From the NCBI RefSeq assembly GCF_053078305.1, contig NZ_CP166879.1: DNA of 64,000 nt; one strand, written 5' to 3'. A program made the position numbers and the translations under genes. The notes under the pieces were generated by a model. It was not told where the DNA came from and did no database searches. It was given only the letters and a program-made list of their open reading frames with translations. Positions 1 through 53,358 of this stretch are shown here, one piece after another (position 1 is the stretch's first letter; each line of letters starts with the position of its first letter).

Positions 1-65
1 GTCCATGCACGAACATGAGCGGGTGCACGGCCTTTTCGTCCCATGGGTTGTAATATCATCATGCA

Positions 66-581
66 TCACCCCCTGACTCGCTTTTCGGCAGCATAAAACT
101 CATCAGACAGAATTTCGGTCATTTTCCGTTTTGCGGAATCATCTTCGCACTGAAGGTAAATAACATTGTCAACGCAGAACCACTTAACGGGGCCAAACAG
201 TATTGCCGAGAAGTCAATGCCCAGCCAGAACAACAGCGCATCGGTTCTGGCATACGTGACGGGCGAATATTCACGCCACAGACTGTTCAGTTCATCAGAG
301 GCAACACGCAGGGTTTTAGGTATACGTGATGTGCGCGGCGTGCAGCTCCAGCCATTCGACGCAGTCGGTTTTCTCCATAAGTCGCGATGAAAAGGATATT
401 TGTCATCCATAAAGCGCAGCCCCTTAAAACAAAATCCACTGATACCGGATACAAATACCGGGCGGCACGCAACATTCAGCACAGCCTCAAGGCGTTTTGC
501 CTCATCTTTTACCGTCTGGCAGTCCTGCTGGTATTTTTGCCACGCAGCCAGCGCGGAAGGGTTTGAAGTTTTAAAGAACAT
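66..581 (-). CDS. hypothetical prophage early-region protein (171 aa)
   Basis: ORF in early operon downstream of gam; start overlaps upstream stop (TAATG); no family recognised. Confidence 0.5.
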   Translation of the reverse strand: MFFKTSNPSALAAWQKYQQDCQTVKDEAKRLEAVLNVACRPVFVSGISGFCFKGLRFMDDKYPFHRDLWRKPTASNGWSCTPRTSRIPKTLRVASDELNSLWREYSPVTYARTDALLFWLGIDFSAILFGPVKWFCVDNVIYLQCEDDSAKRKMTEILSDEFYAAEKRVRG

Positions 582-1114
582 TACGCCACCTCCGCAGAAA
601 TCGCGGCCGGTGCCGCTGTCCGGTCAACAATCAGGTAACGCAGAACGCGCGAGGTGATATTCCGGCCGCTTAAACCGCAGATAATGACGCCCAGGCGGAT
701 GTCGATATACGCCATCACAAACTGGGGCACGCCTTCTTTCATGGCCTGCTCATCAACTTCAGCCACCACATAAACGGTTTCACAGGTCAGAACGCCCTGA
801 GCAAATTCCCACGCCATCGACGGAATATCATGCCCCTCAATCCACGGCAGGGACTTTCTGAAGCTGCACCACTGAACATCATCAGCCGCACATTCCTGGC
901 TGCATTTGCGACGAACCGGCTGCACCGGGCGGGGACGCGGAATATCATAAAAACCGTTACATTCCGTCAGCACGCCTGCATCAACCGCATCACGCAGAAA
1001 ATAAACCATGGAGGATAGCGGCATATTCATTTTTTCTGCCAGAGAACGACTGGTCAGACGGCCAGAAAAACGCAGCCAGCTTTTAACCCCTTCAAGCACT
1101 TTTGCATCAATCAT
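581..1114 (-). CDS. hypothetical prophage early-region protein (177 aa)
   Basis: ORF co-directional with gam; no family recognised. Confidence 0.5.
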   Translation of the reverse strand: MIDAKVLEGVKSWLRFSGRLTSRSLAEKMNMPLSSMVYFLRDAVDAGVLTECNGFYDIPRPRPVQPVRRKCSQECAADDVQWCSFRKSLPWIEGHDIPSMAWEFAQGVLTCETVYVVAEVDEQAMKEGVPQFVMAYIDIRLGVIICGLSGRNITSRVLRYLIVDRTAAPAAISAEVA

Positions 1115-1259
1115 GATTTATTTCCCCACCACATTATTAATGACGATATAAACGTATTTCATATTTCTTAACCCTTATTTTCTGTTTTCAGGCGCAAGCA
1201 GTCCCCTGACGCAAGCGCCATAATTAAAACGATGTGATATTTAAAGATTTAATGCGGTG

Positions 1260-1790
1260 TTATTTATTCAGTCCGGCGTCCTGTTCAAAAGGCTCGACAT
1301 GAAAACTTTCAGCGCCTTTATTCACCTTAATACCAGCAATCCCTTTCACCGCATCCGGCTCCGCCAGGACAGCTTGCTTATTCACTTCCTCTTTCGTGCG
1401 GATGAAGCGCTCAAGCCCCATACGACGCAGCATTTCAATCACACCTTCCACATCACGACTGACGCTGCATGATGGATTTCCCAGCCGCCATGACACCGTT
1501 CCGGTGGTCAGATTGGCAGTTTTGGTTTCGCCGCCGTTCGTCAGCTCATTGCGGTTGGTTTTACACCAGTCATGAATCCCTTTAAAAAGCACTTTGATTT
1601 CTTTTTTAAGGTTTTCAATCTGCGGCGTATAACGGGCGGTGATTTCTGCCACTTCATCATTCATCGCCGTTTCCAGGCGCAGCGCCTCTCGCTGAATATC
1701 ACCCAGAGTGCGGATATCGCGGCTGACTTCTTCGCGGGTCTGTGGTGCGGCCTCGGCTGCGGCCTTTAATTTTGTAACACGTTTAACCAT
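1260..1790 (-). CDS. gam: Gam-like host-nuclease inhibitor / DNA-end binding protein
   Basis: Translation from internal Met (MVKRVTKLKAAAEA...) resembles phage Mu Gam along its length (LETAMND, ELTNGG, TANL, VSWR, FIRTK, PFEQ motifs). Confidence 0.8.
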   Translation of the reverse strand: MVKRVTKLKAAAEAAPQTREEVSRDIRTLGDIQREALRLETAMNDEVAEITARYTPQIENLKKEIKVLFKGIHDWCKTNRNELTNGGETKTANLTTGTVSWRLGNPSCSVSRDVEGVIEMLRRMGLERFIRTKEEVNKQAVLAEPDAVKGIAGIKVNKGAESFHVEPFEQDAGLNK

Positions 1791-1800
1791 TTTGTTTTCC

Positions 1801-2094
1801 TTATTGCAGTGCGCCTGATGCTTTATGCACACGGTGGCGTTTAATGATGGCATCCGCCCCAAAAGCCTGTACAGATGCCTGAAATTCCGCTGAGAGAAGC
1901 TGAATAATTGCAGGACTGTGATACTGGAGAATACTTGCATAAACGTCACAGAGTGACGTCGGGCTGTTCTCCGTATCACGTTCTGTTTTCACATCCACTC
2001 CAATCTTTTCATGCACTTCAACACAGTCATTGCCTGCCAGCTTTTCGTCATGCGAAACATGCTCAAATTCAAAAATAACGCGTACTTTGCTCAT
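1801..2094 (-). CDS. hypothetical small prophage protein, paralog 1
   Basis: Starts MSKVRVIFEFEHV; N-terminus paralogous to the adjacent upstream ORF; SD-like GGGG before the internal ATG. Confidence 0.5.
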   Translation of the reverse strand: MSKVRVIFEFEHVSHDEKLAGNDCVEVHEKIGVDVKTERDTENSPTSLCDVYASILQYHSPAIIQLLSAEFQASVQAFGADAIIKRHRVHKASGALQ

Positions 2095-2098
2095 GGAA

Positions 2099-2371
2099 TT
2101 ACCCCTGCTGATTAAATTCATTACCGTTAATAACCCCGGAAGCCATACCCCTGTCTTTCATGAATGCACTGGCTTTCATTGCCACAAGCTCTGCGAAGTT
2201 TCTGCTTTCTGCCAGCATAACCACCCCAAAAATCATGGCGGGTCCATTATCTTTCTTCTTTATTCCGGTTGAACGTATATCCAGACTTACCCCTCTGTGC
2301 GTGCTGCCATCAGAGTTTTTGCAGATAACATCTTCCTTGTATTCGAAAATAATGCGTACGACTTTACTCAT
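2099..2371 (-). CDS. hypothetical small prophage protein, paralog 2
   Basis: Starts MSKVVRIIFEYKEDV; AGAGGA SD-like sequence before the internal ATG; paralog of 1801-2094. Confidence 0.5.
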   Translation of the reverse strand: MSKVVRIIFEYKEDVICKNSDGSTHRGVSLDIRSTGIKKKDNGPAMIFGVVMLAESRNFAELVAMKASAFMKDRGMASGVINGNEFNQQG

Positions 2372-2445
2372 CCTCTGGCTCTCGTTTTGTTCGGATAACT
2401 GACCCGGCGTCTGACCTGATGACAGAGCCGAACCATGAAGCAACT

Positions 2446-2703
2446 TCATACTTCCCAGTAAACCGTGCATCCGCTTATGCGGGTGGCTTTCACACGGCGG
2501 CGCAGGCCGTTGGTCTTAACGGTGATTTCAATTTCCTCACCACTCCCCTGAACCTCGCCTACCGGCGGCGTGGTTTTCAGTGCAAAACGTTGCGGATAGC
2601 GCTTACTGCGTTCCAGTACCGCACCGGCAAGCTCGGTCAGGCGACGTGCGCTGTTCAGGGAGTCGAATAAATTCATTTTTTTACCGCTGGATTGCATATT
2701 CAT
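2446..2703 (-). CDS. hypothetical small prophage early protein (85 aa)
   Basis: ORF in early operon between the B-like and gam-like genes. Confidence 0.4.
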   Translation of the reverse strand: MNMQSSGKKMNLFDSLNSARRLTELAGAVLERSKRYPQRFALKTTPPVGEVQGSGEEIEITVKTNGLRRRVKATRISGCTVYWEV

Positions 2704-2715
2704 ATAACACCTCGT

Positions 2716-2943
2716 TTAACTGATTTGTTCAGCACCGATAAAACGGCAAATATTGCTGTAAGTTTCTGTCGCACCTTCGCGATCAAGTCCAACAGATATT
2801 GCCATTCGGGTGCGATCATTAAATTCAAAGAGTAAATCGCCACATTCTTCACTGTCAGACATGGAGACTGCTTTGACGTTATCGAAATTAACCAGGTAAA
2901 AGCGTCCGTAAATATCAGGAATATTAAATACCGCCATAATCAC
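2716..2943 (-). CDS. small early protein, possibly Kil-like (75 aa)
   Basis: Position immediately after the B-like gene and size match Mu kil; sequence identity not confirmed. Confidence 0.35.
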   Translation of the reverse strand: MIMAVFNIPDIYGRFYLVNFDNVKAVSMSDSEECGDLLFEFNDRTRMAISVGLDREGATETYSNICRFIGAEQIS

Positions 2944-3872
2944 ACCTGTGAAAGTAATTCAGGGTTGGTGTAAACCTCTTTAAAGGCCGCATTAATATGT
3001 TTTTCTGTCAGCGCCGCGCCTTCACCGCTGGCGGTGAGCCACGCCTGGTTAAGCGTATGTGTCAGAACGCGTAACGCCCCCGGCTTTTCAGCGATAGCCT
3101 GCATGACGGCCAGCTCGGCCTCACCACTGATCCCCCACGCCCTGGCAATGGCCAGCACATCCGCCTTTTTGGCCTTGCGAAGTTGTTTTGTACGGGCAAG
3201 ACGGCTGAACAGGCGCGATAAATCATCAAAGGCGCGGCGTCCACCTTTAAACAATCCGCGCGGGTTACCAATAAGTACCATCCCGATCCCCGTGGCGTCC
3301 TGAATTGCCCGGAGTTGTTCCAGACCGTCAATACCAAGATGATCTGCTTCGTCAACAATCACCAGTCCACGTGTTCCCGTCAGGCGACGGCGGATGGCGC
3401 GGGATAATGCCCCTTTGTTCGCGCGGGTGTAATCAATCCCCAGCGCATCGGCCAGCTCCAGCAAACACTCCGTGACGCTGGAGTGCGCGGGCGACAGGGT
3501 GATCATCCAGGTGTTCGGTTGCTCCTGACAGTAATTACGGGCCGTGGCCGTTTTACCCACACCCGGTACGCCCACAATGACGTTAATACAGCCCATCAGG
3601 CGAACCGCCTGAAACAGTGCGCGCAGCTCCTGGACTGTCTGCGTTTCAACAAACTGTGGCGGCTCGGGCAGTGCGCTTTGTTTATTCCAGTTCTCATACC
3701 AGGAACGCAGGGAAGCAGCCACAGCAGCGTTATCGCCTTTATATTTTCCCTTACGGAAAGCCGATAATGTGCCGTCGGAAATTCCCGCCTCTCTGGCGAT
3801 GGCATACTGCGTCAGTACGCCGCCATCAATAAGTTCATCAATGGTCTTGATTACATCGTTAATATCAGTCAT
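2940..3872 (-). CDS. MuB-like DNA transposition ATPase
   Basis: 310 aa, Walker A GVPGVGKT, N-terminal HTH-like segment, located after transposase as in Mu. Confidence 0.8.
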   Translation of the reverse strand: MTDINDVIKTIDELIDGGVLTQYAIAREAGISDGTLSAFRKGKYKGDNAAVAASLRSWYENWNKQSALPEPPQFVETQTVQELRALFQAVRLMGCINVIVGVPGVGKTATARNYCQEQPNTWMITLSPAHSSVTECLLELADALGIDYTRANKGALSRAIRRRLTGTRGLVIVDEADHLGIDGLEQLRAIQDATGIGMVLIGNPRGLFKGGRRAFDDLSRLFSRLARTKQLRKAKKADVLAIARAWGISGEAELAVMQAIAEKPGALRVLTHTLNQAWLTASGEGAALTEKHINAAFKEVYTNPELLSQV

Positions 3873-3943
3873 ATTATTAACCTCTCATTTGATACCTTGT
3901 TTAATCAAATAACCTGAGTCGCCGCTCGGGTTATTTTTTTATT

Positions 3944-6034
3944 TCAGGCCAGCGGGTCATTTTCTTTTAATTTCGCTTCCAGCAACTGCAATCCCCGCTG
4001 GAAATTACGCTCGTATTCTTCATCAGGTTCATCGTCAGCGACCGGTTGCTGAACGGTCACCGTATTACCCACAGGGCGGTATATGTTTTCCAGCCAGGGC
4101 TCCTGCGGCTTGTGCTCCAGCACGTTGACAACCTCATCCTCGGCATCACGGATTTTTTCCTCTGCGCGTTTACGCATGCCTTTAAGGCGTTGCTGCTGTT
4201 TGTAGTATTCCGCACTAACCGGGAAGGCTTCGCGTTTATTACCGTCCCATACCGCCTCGCAAATCACGCTGCCATCCAGGCGACGTACGGTAATTCGTTC
4301 GGCATCATGAATGTCATAGCTGATAAGCACCTTACGACCATGCTCGTCACGCAGCTCGGGCGCGTAGTAAATATTATTCAGCCAGCGTATTTCACAGCGT
4401 CTTACAGGGCGTTCCACCATCGGCCGGAACATATCCCGCAGCTCAACATCGGACAGCCATTCAATTTCCGTGTCCTCTTCCGCCAGGCGTTTTTTTCTGA
4501 ACTCCGCCGGGCTGTAATGCTTGCCGTTCGGCTTCACCGGTAATTCATCGTGCGGCCGGTTGTTGTACCACTCAACACCGTCACGAATGGCATCAATCAG
4601 TTCAGACCAGGACGGTAAATCACGCATCGCTGACTGCTGCCGGACGTTCAGCCGTTTGCCCTGTTGCAGGGCAGTAAATGCCGAGCGTAAATCGCGGTTG
4701 GTTTTGCGTAACGTCTCGCGATCTGCACCTTTCCCGAAATAGGTGCGGTATTTACGGGCTATGCGCATCGGTAATGTGCGGTTAAGCCGTTCGATAATGC
4801 CTCGTCCCTGCGGATTACCGGCAATCCCGGTCGGGTGATTAATCCCCAGTCGCGGCAGTATCCCCACAACCTCCTTATCCAGGATGTCGGCGGTTTCCCC
4901 GGAGCCGTTATCCGAGTAATACAGAAACGGTTTGCCGTGATGGCGAATGCCGTGCTGTATGGCACCGGCTACGGCGAAAACATTTTCAGCCAGGTCAAGG
5001 CTCCAGCCCACCACAAAGCGCGTGCCACCGTCGATAACAAAGGTCACTTCCGGTGCAAATGGCCGACCGTGAACCGGGTGTGCGCATTTCAGTTTCATGC
5101 CGTGACCGTCACCAATCCAGACATAATTCACCGGCATTTTTGACCAGTCGCGGCGCGTGAATCCCTCAAGCTGGCGGTATTCACTGCCGGTCACCCGGCC
5201 TTTTTGTTTCACCACTTCCGGCAGTTTCTTCATTGCGCGGCGAATGGTGTCATAAGACGGCATGATATCGAGCATATAAGGCTCATCAGCGTGCCGGTGC
5301 TGCCATTCAGCAACAAAATCCTCGTAAGCCTCGGTCATTGGTCGGCCGTTTGACTGGCGATACTGCGCCAGAAATTCGGGCAGCCAGTTAATATCTTCGG
5401 CTTTTATTTCCTGGCGCTTACCCGGTGCCAGTAAAAGCAGGCGTTCAGCGGCGTTCTGCGCCTTGTTAAAGGCCGCAATCCAGCGTTTCAGCGTGATTTC
5501 ACTTAACGCACGGCTGTTTCCCTTTTTGGCGTTCGCCGTCTCAACCATTGCCACAATGCGCTCGTCCAGCTGCGAACGTGCCAGGTTGTCAACGATAAAC
5601 CGGATAGCCTTCGCACAGCTGAAACCAGGTTGTTGCGCGACTTTCAGAACTTCGCTGACGATCGCGATTCGTGCATCAGCCACCTGGCGCTGGTTTTCAG
5701 TCAGGGCATTAAGGCGTTCGACCATCAGTTGTGGTGATCCGCGATATGCCTCCACCGCATCAACCACGGCAGGCGAGCGTCTGGCCTTTGTCACCACTGG
5801 AGCCGGTGATTCATCGACTTTTTGAGTCATCAGTTGCAGGGCGTAGCGTTCACGTAATGCCTGCTGCGTCACTTCAGGTAAACAGTCGATGCTGTATTCA
5901 GTTGCTTTAGAGCCTGAGCGACGACGGGAACAACAGCTTTTCCCTTGTACGTAACGTTGTAATGCCTGGCGAATACCTTTTGTTGTAGCAGGCATTCCGG
6001 GCGCGCCAATCAGTTCTTTTGCAATGACATACAT
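3944..6034 (-). CDS. MuA-like DDE transposase
   Basis: 696 aa ORF directly downstream of ner-like gene; size and position of Mu A. Confidence 0.8.
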   Translation of the reverse strand: MYVIAKELIGAPGMPATTKGIRQALQRYVQGKSCCSRRRSGSKATEYSIDCLPEVTQQALRERYALQLMTQKVDESPAPVVTKARRSPAVVDAVEAYRGSPQLMVERLNALTENQRQVADARIAIVSEVLKVAQQPGFSCAKAIRFIVDNLARSQLDERIVAMVETANAKKGNSRALSEITLKRWIAAFNKAQNAAERLLLLAPGKRQEIKAEDINWLPEFLAQYRQSNGRPMTEAYEDFVAEWQHRHADEPYMLDIMPSYDTIRRAMKKLPEVVKQKGRVTGSEYRQLEGFTRRDWSKMPVNYVWIGDGHGMKLKCAHPVHGRPFAPEVTFVIDGGTRFVVGWSLDLAENVFAVAGAIQHGIRHHGKPFLYYSDNGSGETADILDKEVVGILPRLGINHPTGIAGNPQGRGIIERLNRTLPMRIARKYRTYFGKGADRETLRKTNRDLRSAFTALQQGKRLNVRQQSAMRDLPSWSELIDAIRDGVEWYNNRPHDELPVKPNGKHYSPAEFRKKRLAEEDTEIEWLSDVELRDMFRPMVERPVRRCEIRWLNNIYYAPELRDEHGRKVLISYDIHDAERITVRRLDGSVICEAVWDGNKREAFPVSAEYYKQQQRLKGMRKRAEEKIRDAEDEVVNVLEHKPQEPWLENIYRPVGNTVTVQQPVADDEPDEEYERNFQRGLQLLEAKLKENDPLA

Positions 6035-6035
6035 A

Positions 6036-6284
6036 TCATGACGCCTTTCTCATATAGCTCTTAACCTGGTATCGACTGGGCCAGATTTCTTCAGGCGATA
6101 CCCCAAGAGCATCAGCAATTATTTGCTGATACGGTCGGCAAGGAGTACGTAATACGCTTTTCAGCGAATCCCTGCTGTAACCAGCCTTTAAAGATAAAGA
6201 GCGCAGTGATAAGCCAGCCATGTGTAAGCGCGCCTTGATGATTTCAGGCGGCCAATCGTGATCTGAAACTTCTCTTCTACTCAT
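6036..6284 (-). CDS. ner: Ner-like DNA-binding regulator
   Basis: 82 aa; C-terminal IIADALGVSPEEIWPSRYQ resembles Mu Ner. Confidence 0.75.
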   Translation of the reverse strand: MSRREVSDHDWPPEIIKARLHMAGLSLRSLSLKAGYSRDSLKSVLRTPCRPYQQIIADALGVSPEEIWPSRYQVKSYMRKAS

Positions 6285-6354
6285 ACTTCCTCTATTCTAA
6301 AAAGTTACCCGCGCGGATATTCGTGCGGATATCTGTACGGGTAAATAATGCATC

Positions 6355-6395
6355 ACTAAAAATACCAAATCAAGGTATTTTTGGTATTTTGGATA
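6355..6395. promoter_or_regulatory. operator/promoter region between divergent ner and c genes
   Basis: Inverted and direct repeats aaaatacc / ggtatttt (x2) in the divergent intergenic region. Confidence 0.4.
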
Positions 6396-6474
6396 ATTTT
6401 TGCTTTTATCCTTATTTTTCAATTGGATAAATAGAAAGAAACCTTTCCTTAGAAAAGCACCAAGAGGTATCTTT

Positions 6475-7005
6475 ATGTCGCAGGGAAAAGAACCTGTTAT
6501 TGAACGTATTGGAATGCTTACAAAGCGCTACCCTTCAAGAAGTGCAGCTGCCAGAGCGTGGGGAATCAATATCAACACATTAAACAGCTATTTCAAGGGA
6601 GGACAAACACAACCAGCCCCCAGAGAAAGTATCCTTATACGAATTTCTGAAAGTGAAGGAGTTAGTCTTGAGTGGCTTAAAGAGGGCAAGGGTGAATCAC
6701 CAAATGATGTTGGTATTTGTGGTAATTTTGGTTGTTCTGGTGATAAGGGAGATCAGCTTACACAGATGCTTTCATTCCTTACGAAAGACGAACGAGAACA
6801 GTTAACCAATCTCCTTGCTCGCAAAGGTGTAGAGACGGTTCTGACACTACTGGATAAAGAAAACCAGGATTTATTACAACTAGAAGGCAGGAAGCGCCTG
6901 GCTGCGTTGATGATTGTAGATATGCCAGACGATTGCGTCAGAGAGATTTTGGAAAAAACCGAGACAAGTAGGCAATCAAATCCGGTAGAATCTAAAGCGG
7001 GTTAG
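6475..7005 (+). CDS. prophage repressor (c-like)
   Basis: Divergent from ner, reads toward the prophage end; HTH-like N-terminus; AGAGG SD before the ATG at 6475. Confidence 0.65.
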   Translation: MSQGKEPVIERIGMLTKRYPSRSAAARAWGININTLNSYFKGGQTQPAPRESILIRISESEGVSLEWLKEGKGESPNDVGICGNFGCSGDKGDQLTQMLSFLTKDEREQLTNLLARKGVETVLTLLDKENQDLLQLEGRKRLAALMIVDMPDDCVREILEKTETSRQSNPVESKAG

Positions 7006-7272
7006 TTTGGCGAGGCTGGCCCGTATGTTAGTTGCCATATAGATTTAATGAAGTTTTAAACGCTTTAAAAAAGTTGAGATCGCAGTATCAAAAGTTTTGC
7101 CGATTTTAGAATAAACGATTAATTATTGCACAATCGGTATCAAATAGACTTTAAGCGCTCATCCAGACATCACCTGTTTTATTTCAGTATCTTACAGGTG
7201 ATTTCACCTCCTTTCACTAAAACCCTCGTTGGTATCAAATGATTCACCTGGTTACACCAGGCACAGAGTAAT

Positions 7273-7626
7273 GTGACCCAAATGATGCGCATGTTTAACT
7301 TTATGAAGAGTGTCGGCGCTACCCCCATCGTTAAAGCCATTGATGTTCCCGGTGAAAAACTGAACTCTCTGGAAGAACTGTTCCAAAAAACGATGGAAGA
7401 ATACGAGCAACGTTCTAGTACGTTGGCACAGTTAGCCGATGAAGCGAAAGAACTGAATGATGATTCAACCGTCAATTTCCTGCGCGATCTGGAAAAAGAA
7501 CAGCAGCATGATGGCCTGTTGCTGCAAACCATTCTTGATGAAGTGCGCAGTGCGAAACTTGCGGGTATGTGCCCAGTGCAGACCGACCAACATGTTCTGA
7601 ATGTCGTGTCGCATCAGCTGCATTGA
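7273..7626 (+). pseudogene. ftnB: ferritin-like protein FtnB, 5'-truncated by prophage insertion
   Basis: 117 aa ORF matches the C-terminal two thirds of FtnB; in-frame stop at 7240-7242 and no ferritin N-terminus upstream. Confidence 0.8.
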
Positions 7627-7669
7627 TCATACATCGGCGCTAATGCATTGCGCCGATGAAGTTTTTGAG

Positions 7670-7707
7670 AAACCGCTGCCTCATCTTTTTGAAGCAGCGG
7701 TTTTTTA
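7670..7707 (+). terminator. rho-independent terminator after ftnB
   Basis: Hairpin accgctgcctc...gaagcagcggt followed by T-run. Confidence 0.6.
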
Positions 7708-7956
7708 ATGGGATTCGCCTTGTGGGGTAAACTTGAGTTCAATCAGCGCGATGGCTTTTTGGATTGCCCGCATGGTGACCGGGTCTGCGGCGGCGGGATG
7801 GTTAGTAAAGTCGATATTCTTCAGCTGGCTGGACATTTTTTCGCGAACTTCAACGGGCGCGATTACATCGAGAACATCCAGAATTTGTTTGATAACCAAC
7901 TGGCAAGCAACCACATCAGAAACCAGTTCCTGATCGGCATTCAGCGGCTGGGACAT
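7705..7956 (-). CDS. yecJ: DUF2766 protein YecJ
   Basis: 83 aa ORF; synteny between ftnB and azuC. Confidence 0.85.
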
Positions 7957-8035
7957 CGTAATCTCCTGATAGCATTTTGAAAGCCGTTATAGTAGCGGCT
8001 TCACATCTTCAGCGATAGTCACATCCACCGTCACC

Positions 8036-8070
8036 AGGACACAAAAAAACCTGCCGGAGCAGGTTTTTTT
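8036..8070. terminator. bidirectional rho-independent terminator
   Basis: aaaaaaacctgccggagcaggttttttt hairpin flanked by A-run and T-run. Confidence 0.7.
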
Positions 8071-8071
8071 G

Positions 8072-8158
8072 TTATCGGAACATATTGCCTGGCGGTACGT
8101 CTTTGAACGTCTTGCAATAGTTATTGAACATACTTTTCAGGATTTTGCGCAGTTTCAT
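8072..8158 (-). CDS. azuC: small membrane protein AzuC (28 aa)
   Basis: Reverse-strand translation gives MKLRKILKSMFNNYCKTFKDVPPGNMFR. Confidence 0.85.
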   Translation of the reverse strand: MKLRKILKSMFNNYCKTFKDVPPGNMFR

Positions 8159-8419
8159 CGCGGCACTCCGACCATTTGTTATACAGGTGTTATTGTCTTT
8201 GCGCTTATAATATGACAACCATCACAAAAATCAATCTTTATGTGATGCAAATCACATAAATACCCCTTTAATGTTATAAAAATGATAATCAAAAAGCAGC
8301 CCCCCCTTTCTGACACCTACAGATGGCGAGAAATAGCGCCTGCCAGGCGTCTTTTCCGGCCATTGTCGCAGCGCTGTAACGCGTAAAATACTGCTTTCTT
8401 TTACTCTTCTGGCTGGACC

Positions 8420-8743
8420 ATGAGACTTCTGATTCTGACTCTTTCATTAATAACGCTGGTGGGGTGCACAGTTACTCGCCAGGCTCATGTGGGCGAAGTT
8501 GACGCGGCAACAGGTATTGTACGGTTGGTTTATGACCAGGCTTTTTTGCAGCATGCCCATACCGATCGTTATGTCAGTCGCGGGATCGCCGATCGCGCAT
8601 GCCAGCAGGAAGGCTATACCCACGCGATCCCCTTTGGTCAGCCAGTAGGCAACTGTAGCCTTTTTGCGGGTTCCTTATGTTTGAATACGGAATTCACTTT
8701 GTCATATCAGTGCCATCATTCCGCCTTCCCTGTCTTTCTCTAA
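8420..8743 (+). CDS. yecR: lipoprotein YecR
   Basis: 107 aa; lipobox LVGC signal. Confidence 0.85.
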   Translation: MRLLILTLSLITLVGCTVTRQAHVGEVDAATGIVRLVYDQAFLQHAHTDRYVSRGIADRACQQEGYTHAIPFGQPVGNCSLFAGSLCLNTEFTLSYQCHHSAFPVFL

Positions 8744-8913
8744 ATATTTTAATCAGCGAGGGGATCTTCGCTGATTAAAGAAATAGCGGTAATGCGTTTT
8801 ATTCCCATTCGTATTTTTAATAATTGAAGTTTATATTTTACCTTTTGCAAATAATAAAATAACAAATTATAGTGACGCCACAGCAACAAATATAACCTTT
8901 GTGGAGCACTATC

Positions 8914-9411
8914 ATGCTGAAACCAGAAATGATTGAAAAACTTAATGAGCAGATGAACCTGGAACTGTACTCTTCACTGCTTTATCAGCAAATGAGCGCC
9001 TGGTGCAGCTATCATACCTTCGAAGGTGCTGCCGCGTTCCTGCGCCGTCACGCCCAGGAAGAGATGACGCATATGCAGCGTCTGTTTGATTACCTGACTG
9101 ATACCGGCAATTTACCGCGTATTAATACCGTTGAATCTCCGTTTGCTGAATATTCCTCACTTGATGAATTATTCCAGGAAACCTATAAACACGAACAATT
9201 AATCACCCAGAAAATTAACGAACTGGCTCATGCTGCAATGACCAATCAGGACTACCCAACATTTAATTTCCTGCAATGGTATGTTTCTGAGCAGCATGAA
9301 GAAGAGAAACTGTTCAAATCGATTATTGATAAATTAAGCCTGGCAGGCAAAAGCGGCGAAGGTCTGTATTTTATCGACAAAGAACTCTCTACCCTCGACA
9401 CACAAAACTAA
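8914..9411 (+). CDS. ftnA: ferritin FtnA
   Basis: [17 protein letters not shown]... ferritin sequence; start at internal Met of the supplied ORF. Confidence 0.95.
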
Positions 9412-9418
9412 TGCTCTC

Positions 9419-9440
9419 CGGCGGCAGGTTTTCTGCCGCC
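9419..9440. terminator. bidirectional terminator between ftnA and yecH
   Basis: Hairpin ggcggcaggttttctgccgcc. Confidence 0.6.
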
Positions 9441-9448
9441 GTTTCAAA

Positions 9449-9688
9449 TCAGTGACGGCAAATCTTACTCTGATCGGTCGAAAAACCTTCTTCTGAAGGT
9501 ATAAATTTGCCTTTTGCTGCCAGAAACGCTACCAGCTCTCCCGCTGTCATCCCTTCTGCCGAGCAAGTGTGAAAACGTGCCTGTTCACCAAAACGCGCTT
9601 TAATCGCAGCTTCCAGACTGGCATGCGTATATTGCTCGCCTGATTCAATCATCATATTTAACACTTCATGACCGTGAATAGAGTCCAT
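9449..9688 (-). CDS. yecH: DUF2492 protein YecH
   Basis: 79 aa ORF; synteny. Confidence 0.85.
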   Translation of the reverse strand: MDSIHGHEVLNMMIESGEQYTHASLEAAIKARFGEQARFHTCSAEGMTAGELVAFLAAKGKFIPSEEGFSTDQSKICRH

Positions 9689-9769
9689 CGTTCCTCCTCA
9701 AAAAAAAGCCTAGCGTAGCGATTACCGCTTATGAAGACTTTGCGCCAGCGCAGGACTGAATGCTTTTAT

Positions 9770-9787
9770 TGTACATTTAAATTTACA
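9770..9787. promoter_or_regulatory. TyrR box upstream of tyrP
   Basis: TGTACATTTAAATTTACA fits TGTAAA-N6-TTTACA. Confidence 0.6.
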
Positions 9788-9878
9788 CCATATGTAACGT
9801 CGGTTTGACGAAGCAGCCGTTATGCCTTAACCTGCGCCGCAGATATCACTCATAAAGATCGTCAGGACAGAAGAAAGC

Positions 9879-11090
9879 GTGAAAAACAGAACCCTGGGAA
9901 GTGTTTTTATCGTGGCGGGAACCACAATTGGCGCAGGCATGCTGGCAATGCCGCTGGCTGCGGCCGGTGTTGGTTTTAGCGTTACTTTAATCTTGTTGAT
10001 TGGGCTTTGGGCGTTGATGTGCTACACGGCGCTATTACTACTGGAGGTGTACCAGCATGTTCCGGCAGATACCGGTCTGGGCACGCTGGCAAAACGCTAT
10101 CTGGGACGCTACGGTCAATGGCTGACGGGCTTCAGTATGATGTTCTTAATGTATGCTCTGACTGCGGCATACATCAGCGGTGCCGGTGAATTGTTGGCCT
10201 CCAGCATCAGCGACTGGACAGGTATTTCAATGTCGGCAACCGCTGGCGTGCTGTTGTTCACTTTTGTTGCCGGTGGCGTGGTTTGTGTCGGGACATCGCT
10301 GGTCGATTTATTTAACCGTTTTCTGTTCAGCGCCAAAATTATTTTTCTGGTGGTGATGCTGGTATTGCTGCTACCGCATATTCACAAAGTGAATCTTTTA
10401 ACCCTGCCGTTGCAACAGGGGCTGGCACTGTCTGCAATCCCGGTGATTTTTACGTCGTTTGGTTTTCACGGTAGCGTGCCGAGTATTGTCAGCTATATGG
10501 ATGGCAACATTCGTAAGCTACGCTGGGTGTTTATAACCGGTAGTGCGATCCCCCTGGTGGCATATATTTTCTGGCAGGTGGCGACGCTTGGCAGCATTGA
10601 TTCAACAACCTTTATGGGATTGCTGGCTAATCATGCCGGATTAAACGGGCTGTTACAGGCGTTACGCGAAATGGTGGCCTCTCCGCATGTTGAGCTGGCA
10701 GTGCATTTATTTGCTGATTTAGCCCTCGCCACGTCATTTCTCGGCGTTGCGTTAGGCTTATTTGATTATCTGGCTGATTTGTTTCAGCGTTCAAATACCG
10801 TTGGTGGAAGATTGCAAACGGGTGCAATTACCTTTCTGCCGCCGTTGGCGTTTGCACTGTTTTATCCACGAGGATTTGTGATGGCGCTGGGTTACGCCGG
10901 TGTGGCGCTGGCGGTACTGGCATTGATTATCCCTTCACTATTGACCTGGCAAAGCAGAAAGCACAATCCTCAGGCGGGTTACCGGGTCAAAGGTGGTCGT
11001 CCGGCGCTGGTGGTGGTGTTTCTCTGTGGTATTGCTGTGATTGGCGTGCAATTTTTGATTGCGGCAGGGTTGTTACCAGAAGTGGGGTGA
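9879..11090 (+). CDS. tyrP: tyrosine-specific transporter TyrP
   Basis: 403 aa multi-pass membrane protein; synteny. Confidence 0.95.
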
Positions 11091-12012: not shown

Positions 12013-12099
12013 TGGTACCCGGAGCGGGACTTGAACCCGCACAGCGCGAACGCCGAGGGATTTTAAATCCCTTGTGTCTACCGATTCCACCATCCGGGC
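12013..12099 (-). tRNA. leuZ: tRNA-Leu
   Basis: 87 nt; reverse complement matches tRNA-Leu with long variable arm and CCA end. Confidence 0.9.
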
Positions 12100-12111
12100 T
12101 CGGGAAGAAAG

Positions 12112-12185
12112 TGGAGGCGCGTTCCGGAGTCGAACCGGACTAGACGGATTTGCAATCCGCTACATAACCGCTTTGTTAACGCGCC
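12112..12185 (-). tRNA. cysT: tRNA-Cys
   Basis: 74 nt; reverse complement GGCGCGTTAACAAAGCGG...CTCCA. Confidence 0.9.
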
Positions 12186-12238
12186 AAATTCTTCAGGCCT
12201 TTCAGCCAGACATCCGCTGACGCCGATGTCTTTTAAAC

Positions 12239-12314
<76 letters not shown>

Positions 12315-44770: not shown

Positions 44771-44858
44771 AAAATCCCGACCCTGAGGGGGTCGGGATGA
44801 AACTTGCTTAAGCAAGAAGCACTTAAAAAATTCGTTACACCAGGAAATCTGATGTGTT
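44771..44858 (-). ncRNA. dsrA: DsrA small regulatory RNA
   Basis: Reverse complement reads AACACATCAGATTTCCTGGTGTAACGAATTTTTTAAGTGCTTCTTGCTTAAGCAAGTTTCATCCCGACCCCCTCAGGGTCGGGATTT with terminator hairpin. Confidence 0.9.
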
Positions 44859-53267: not shown

Positions 53268-53358
53268 TTTTTATTATTCTGTGTCATGATGCTTCCGTTA
53301 TTAGCCTTTTATCGTCTTGTTTATATTTTTTGGGCCGGCATGATGCCGGCTTTTTTTT
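53268..53358 (+). ncRNA. rseX: putative small RNA (RseX-like position) ending at an intrinsic terminator
   Basis: Strong hairpin gggccggcatgatgccggc plus T8 at 53332-53358 in the AT-rich yedR-yedS spacer; 5' end not determined. Confidence 0.35.

Follow-up and report, generated by a model that had tools for sequence, protein, structure and literature searches.

The window analysed here is a stretch of 64,000 nucleotides from contig NZ_CP166879.1 (assembly GCF_053078305.1), in which the left end of a transposable prophage directly adjoins the 3' part of ftnB, a chromosomal gene for a non-haem ferritin-like protein. The features at and around the join are listed below, with positions and strands relative to the window; L037 denotes a locus on contig JPQG01000004 of the draft assembly GCA_000736735.1.

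1-7256, minus strand: 7.2 kb from the left (repressor/early) end of an Sp18-type Mu-like transposable prophage that runs in reverse orientation to the window, recognised from sequence matches and gene content
2940-3872, minus strand: MuB-like AAA+ DNA transposition protein, 310 aa (PHROG 296 'DNA transposition protein', E 1e-109; Phage-MuB_C, PF09077, on an identical product)
3944-6034, minus strand: MuA-like transposase, 696 aa (Pfam Mu-transpos_C, PF09299, E 1.4e-17, and HTH_Tnp_Mu_1, PF02316; PHROG 310, E 6e-213)
6036-6284, minus strand: Ner-like early regulator, 82 aa (Pfam HTH_35, E 2.5e-19; PHROG 769)
6475-7005, plus strand: phage repressor-family gene, 176 aa, directed toward the phage tip and the ftnB piece (PHROG 3037 'transcriptional repressor', E 1e-62)
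6997-7024, plus strand: terminator-like 12-bp stem-loop that overlaps the stop codon of the repressor gene but has a poor U tract (terminator scan; fold dG -18.4 kcal/mol)
7006-7256, plus strand: phage left end (attL-type), its terminal ...CCTGGTTACA reaching 7256 (repeats; relatives in 115 genomes)
7247-7261, no strand: inverted repeat CCTGGT-TAC-ACCAGG across the junction
7257-7260, no strand: CCAG, the 4-bp target-site duplication as found on the right-hand side; its partner, at L037 10135-10138, immediately precedes the right tip TATAGCG
7273-7626, plus strand: 117-aa ORF whose GTG start is Val51 of FtnB; a mechanical ORF call, not a demonstrated gene (anti-SD pairing -2.5 kcal/mol)
7705-7956, minus strand: yecJ (DUF2766), the usual downstream neighbour of ftnB (Pfam DUF2766, E 3e-56; order as in O157:H7 TR01)

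The window holds 7.2 kb of a phage of about 39 kb, the remainder of which lies beyond the window start. Its early genes encode Gp12, Gp11, Gam, Kil, MuB, MuA, Ner and the repressor; a MuB-like ATPase adjoins a MuA-type transposase with the Mu C-terminal domain, and the left end combines an outward-facing repressor gene with a divergent ner-A-B-kil-gam series. The repressor-family gene, annotated as the same CDS by RefSeq in relatives, reads toward the ftnB piece, as the original prediction had it, and occupies the same position as c in Mu. Window 1-7256 is 96.5% identical to the 'region of the inserted Bacteriophage Mu-like phage' in LC727895.1 and 95-96% identical to Mu-like-phage regions annotated inside two Stx phages. 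An identical phage end occurs at many unrelated chromosomal sites (115 genomes), and at ftnB a short target duplication (CCAG, 4 bp) is present at both prophage ends. Relatives that are complete measure 38.8-39.6 kb, with Mu-type genes for early, lysis, head, tail and invertase functions and for the com/mom region, and every one of them cuts a host gene into two pseudogene halves. Sp18-like phages are known to be transposable, with strain-specific insertion sites (PMC7430833, PMC10132054).

The ftnB sequence occupies window 7257-7626 on the plus strand and corresponds to nt 135-504 of the 504-nt gene, that is, the third base of codon 45, codons 46-167 and the stop. It is 100% identical to the intact ftnB of many E. 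coli. Against the intact allele of O157:H7 TR01 (L001 1367-1870) the window aligns to L001 1501-1870, starting at the third base of codon 45. When window 7100-7700 was compared with 5,426 complete RefSeq E. coli genomes, 5,418 matched, but nowhere before query base 158, the equivalent of window 7257; none of the 5,426 spans the junction between ftnB and the Mu-like phage. From the other side, 115 genomes match window 6290-7256 through to the final base, and the host gene that comes next differs from case to case (among them a glycosyltransferase gene, ycjT, an SDR oxidoreductase gene and mhpD). Because the sequence shared with these genomes stops at exactly 7256 and gives way to a variety of host genes, we place the phage tip at that base. 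The comparison with an intact ftnB allele, suggested earlier as a means of locating the breakpoint, thus sets it to the base, between 7256 and 7257, with host identity beginning at the latter; with a slash marking the join, the sequence reads ...GGTTACA/CCAGGCAC....

Within the window, the original description of a promoterless 3' piece of ftnB abutting a prophage is borne out. The ORF at 7273-7626 does encode only a C-terminal ferritin-like piece, of 117 aa from a GTG start, matching Pfam Ferritin over profile positions 45-140 of 142 only, and the upstream translation shows the frame closed by TGA at 7240-7242. The further statement that nothing ferritin-like precedes 7273 is right for the phage end to the left, but ftnB identity itself begins at 7257, 16 nt upstream of the GTG. 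A match between the FtnB N-terminus and the sequence upstream of 7273 had been named as the observation that would speak against truncation; one is present in a trivial sense, namely the five residues QAQSN (codons 46-50).

To the right of the ftnB piece, yecJ (7705-7956), yecR, ftnA (8899-9411), yecH and tyrP follow in normal E. coli order. The remaining window is ordinary E. coli chromosome, with three tRNA genes, DsrA and RseX at Rfam gathering scores (12016-12314, 44772-44858, 53268-53357).

The phage left end contains three same-orientation GTATCAAA motifs, at 7085-7092, 7137-7144 and 7232-7239, at distances from the tip of about 171, 120 and 25 nt; the motif is also found in the phage right end, at equal offset from its tip. 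The ends of Mu carry sites in an L1-L3 layout and, by analogy, the GTATCAAA repeats, spaced like Mu L1-L3, are candidate transposase-binding sites. Among the six relatives with both flanks readable, the family termini are 5'-TGTAACC...GCGCTATA-3'.

Sp18-type prophages are flanked by a 4-bp target duplication in all eight insertions of our sample: CCAG, GATA, AATT, TCTT, TGGA, TATG, GATA and TAAA. The sample consists of the ftnB insertion (window 7250-7260; L037 10135-10145) together with L006, L017, L018, L019, L031/L036, L033/L035 and L039/L040; the six relatives with both flanks readable account for GATA, AATT, TCTT, TGGA, TATG and GATA. In strain 90-3040, comparison with the uninterrupted ycaI/comEC allele shows that AATT alone was duplicated. 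A duplication of 5 bp, assumed by analogy with Mu, is ruled out by this allele and by the further relatives. We found no statement on 4-bp duplications by Mu-like phages in the literature searched; if not already described, the difference between 4 and 5 bp is of modest interest to transposition specialists. The hexamer GATATC opens three of the nine right-hand flanks that were read (L006 41122-41127; L031; L032), in a glycosyltransferase gene, in tnpA of IS609 and in hofC, a recurrence that hints at a target-sequence preference of the Sp18-type transposase.

Sp18 of E. coli O157:H7 Sakai offers the nearest comparison. Its left end is 99.35% identical over 1232 nt, its termini (TGTAACCAGG...GCGCTATA) are the same, its target duplication is likewise 4 bp long (TAAA), and it too cuts a host gene, sorM, into two annotated pseudogene halves, whereas the target here is ftnB. 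The Sp18 family is mosaic, and the middle and right parts of the ftnB-inserted phage were seen only in part. Sakai NC_002695.2 annotates Sp18 at 5040971-5079729; the termini and the 4-bp duplication (L039, L040) give 5040970-5079724.

Like Mu, the phage is a transposable prophage that inserts at random sites and encodes a MuA/MuB pair; also shared are the left-end order repressor, ner, A, B, kil, gam with the repressor directed toward the left tip, a set of three repeated left-end motifs resembling the spacing of Mu L1-L3, and a left tip that begins 5'-TGTA. It differs from Mu in that the duplication is 4 bp in each of the eight insertions rather than 5 bp, and in that the Sp18-type right tip (...GCGCTATA-3') ends in TA rather than in the CA-3' of Mu. 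In addition, the phage repressor has no Pfam match, and only the N- and C-terminal parts of the transposase give matches to Mu Pfam domains. Of the traits of Mu proper, a 5-bp duplication and 5'-TG...CA-3' termini, only the TG of the left tip is present. Because the 5-bp duplication and the CA-3' right tip are lacking, the phage is Mu-like, but not Mu proper.

The far junction was predicted by combining a 4-bp duplication with the commoner right-end sequence, which gives an 82-aa fusion ORF (FtnB residues 1-46 followed by 36 phage-end residues). This fusion is on record exactly once, on contig JPQG01000004 of GCA_000736735.1, with the araF side to one flank and the phage mom gene to the other. 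Other candidate fusions, built with a 5-bp duplication or with the class-1 right end of strain 89-3156, are not on record, and neither is a second class-2 variant; a match exists for the 4-bp, class-2 prediction only. GCA_000736735.1 is a draft in which the prophage is broken across contigs, and its contig JPQG01000010 is 100% identical to window 1-10034. At the far junction (L037) the DNA reads ...GCGCCCAG/TATAGCGCGG... or, over a longer stretch, ...CACTTTCCTTCGCGCCCAG/TATAGCGCGGCG..., the phage right end being joined to ftnB nt 1-138 with the native promoter region and 5' UTR attached. When one CCAG is dropped, L037 10001-10138 and window 7261-7626 together reproduce all 504 nt of the TR01 ftnB allele without a single difference, and the 900 nt leading up to the far junction (upstream region plus ftnB 5' half) contain a single mismatch to TR01.

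The ftnB 5' half, which lies outside the window (L037 10001-10249), opens an 82-aa ORF whose final 36 codons are phage right-end sequence and which points antisense into mom. The left junction is found again in IMG/VR record UViG 2617271340_000022, which may be the same strain and is not counted as independent. Neither the far junction nor the ftnB start turned up in scans of viral contigs, and scans of genome contigs for the far and near junctions gave no match either. Because the far junction was read from a draft assembly identical over 10 kb, we infer, rather than observe, that the ftnB 5' half lies at the far prophage end of the window's own genome. The earlier wording, that ftnB had been 'reduced to a fragment', implied loss and does not survive this comparison: the gene is only split, with its 5' half at the other prophage end, a CCAG duplication and halves that rebuild the intact allele.

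We conclude with high confidence that chromosomal ftnB was interrupted at codon 45/46 by transposition of an Sp18-type Mu-like phage about 39 kb long. Transposase-mediated strand transfer with a 4-bp stagger would have produced the insertion. By its sequence the event is a simple insertion, with CCAG duplicated and with neither deletion nor decay, and evidently a recent one, because both ftnB halves are free of further mutations. A functional FtnB would require an uninterrupted 167-codon ORF with helices A-E, of which the window holds codons 46-167 only, and an attached native promoter, 5' UTR and SD, all of which are on the other half (L037); ftnB would accordingly be expected to be a null allele. 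The 5' half should still be transcribable and could yield the 82-aa product of 46 FtnB residues and 36 phage-end residues, while the 3' half, lacking its own promoter, 5' UTR and ribosome-binding site, would at most be carried in untranslated read-through RNA from the repressor gene. Insertional inactivation by a Mu-like prophage is textbook behaviour for this class of phage and already known; the event is ordinary, and only its site, ftnB, is particular to the lineage.

Other events could be proposed for the same join. The window by itself shows only the 3' part of ftnB, and transposable phages can make adjacent deletions; the 5' part and the promoter might then have been removed, by a Mu-mediated adjacent deletion or some other rearrangement, to leave a true 3' remnant. 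This we regard as most improbable. In the assembly that matches at 100%, the 5' half sits at the phage right end together with its upstream DNA, CCAG flanks the phage, and the halves rebuild ftnB exactly; a deletion would allow neither of the last two. For GCA_000736735.1 a deletion is already contradicted. A different objection is that the junction is an assembly chimera of a prophage contig and the ftnB locus: Mu-like prophages are repeated and often break assemblies, and the draft assembly does break inside the prophage. However, the join falls exactly at the conserved phage tip, the same junction is present in both the IMG/VR record and the draft contig (though possibly from one strain), and the reciprocal junction exists with the 4-bp duplication typical of the family, so that a chimera deserves almost no credence.

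Insertion into ftnB bears also on whether the 3' piece is expressed. The original prediction allowed that read-through could yield a truncated product. In a more specific form of this reading, transcription from the repressor promoter would cross the phage end and give a truncated FtnB (residues 51-167 or 54-167) with some activity. The repressor gene is co-oriented with the fragment, and the stem-loop after its stop codon is without a good U tract, which makes some RNA plausible; judged from these elements, read-through RNA from the repressor gene into the ftnB piece is conceivable. Several features, however, speak against a protein product. The 12-bp stem-loop lies across the repressor stop codon, poor though its U tract is. 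The 267 untranslated nt ahead of the fragment contain stops in all three frames and become C-rich and G-poor toward the tip, and untranslated RNA of C>G-rich composition is what Rho polarity usually acts on. For GTG 7273, ATG 7282 and ATG 7285, the candidate starts, anti-SD pairing amounts to -2.4 to -2.5 kcal/mol, a background level reached by about half of the window's ATG/GTG triplets, compared with -6.2 for native ftnB. No outward sigma-70-like promoter was found on the plus strand from 6200 up to a site at 7966. In its normal context ftnB, which codes for an iron-storage protein, is repressed by CsrA and translated by way of a 127-nt 5' UTR and SD that are the CsrA targets (PMC6686035), and these are on the other half of the gene.

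The protein itself would also be compromised. An AlphaFold single-sequence model of FtnB (pLDDT 69) places helices at residues 4-33, 37-63, 83-110, 114-147 and 156-165, in agreement with an alignment to FtnA structures that spans residues 5-148, and the break falls in predicted helix B (residues 37-63). A protein beginning at residue 51 would be missing helix A together with roughly half of helix B and, on this model, would probably fail to fold or assemble. The chance that the 3' piece gives a stable or functional product is at best slim, and read-through expression of a truncated FtnB with some activity seems to us very unlikely. Very unlikely, too, is a fuller scenario in which a constitutive repressor transcript would place a truncated FtnB (51/54-167) under phage control and so disturb ferritin assembly or iron handling, while the CsrA-regulated promoter drives the 82-aa fusion and antisense transcription into mom. 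A literature search on outward transcription from the repressor end of Mu returned nothing relevant.

The original prediction drew attention to a hairpin-capable inverted repeat at the junction. The repeat exists, at 7247-7261 rather than 7246-7260, but carries no significance: it is one of 32 perfect repeats with a 6-bp stem and 3-nt loop in the window, where shuffled sequences give about 14 (154 are found with loops of 3-8 nt). The hairpin was created by the insertion, because its left arm is phage DNA and its right arm combines the final base of the phage with host CCAGG. None forms in four other insertions with the same repressor-type left end, which rules out the idea that the hairpin reflects a target preference for sequence complementary to the phage tip. 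The 6-bp stem is followed by CACAGAGTAATG, with no U tract; the terminator scan did not pick it up, and it has the character of neither an intrinsic terminator nor a regulatory hairpin. It is a coincidence of juxtaposition, no better than chance.

The insertion implies that the strain is an ftnB null mutant, and its iron-storage phenotypes could differ from those of reference strains. The junction of ftnB and the Mu-like phage, absent from the complete E. coli genomes compared above, can serve as a lineage marker. Annotators should mark the two ftnB pieces as belonging to a single interrupted gene, each being one half of it, and not as a remnant; beyond annotation the split carries little weight.

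Hundreds of public assembly blocks contain truncated ftnB products. When the fragment ORFs of 117 aa and 114 aa were looked up as exact sequences, only unrelated ftnB disruptions came back, none of them the phage insertion; other disrupted alleles give the same 114- or 117-aa C-terminal ORF calls. Most of the disruptions that were read are 1-nt indels at nt 136-138, inside a CCCAGG run (L007, L008, L021, L026, L028, L029). This run is a Dcm-type CCWGG site and is exactly where the phage inserted. The indels are probably sequencing errors, because the assemblies concerned have many other split genes. Genuine insertions in ftnB elsewhere are an IS1 in L025 and an element of about 5.3 kb in L027.
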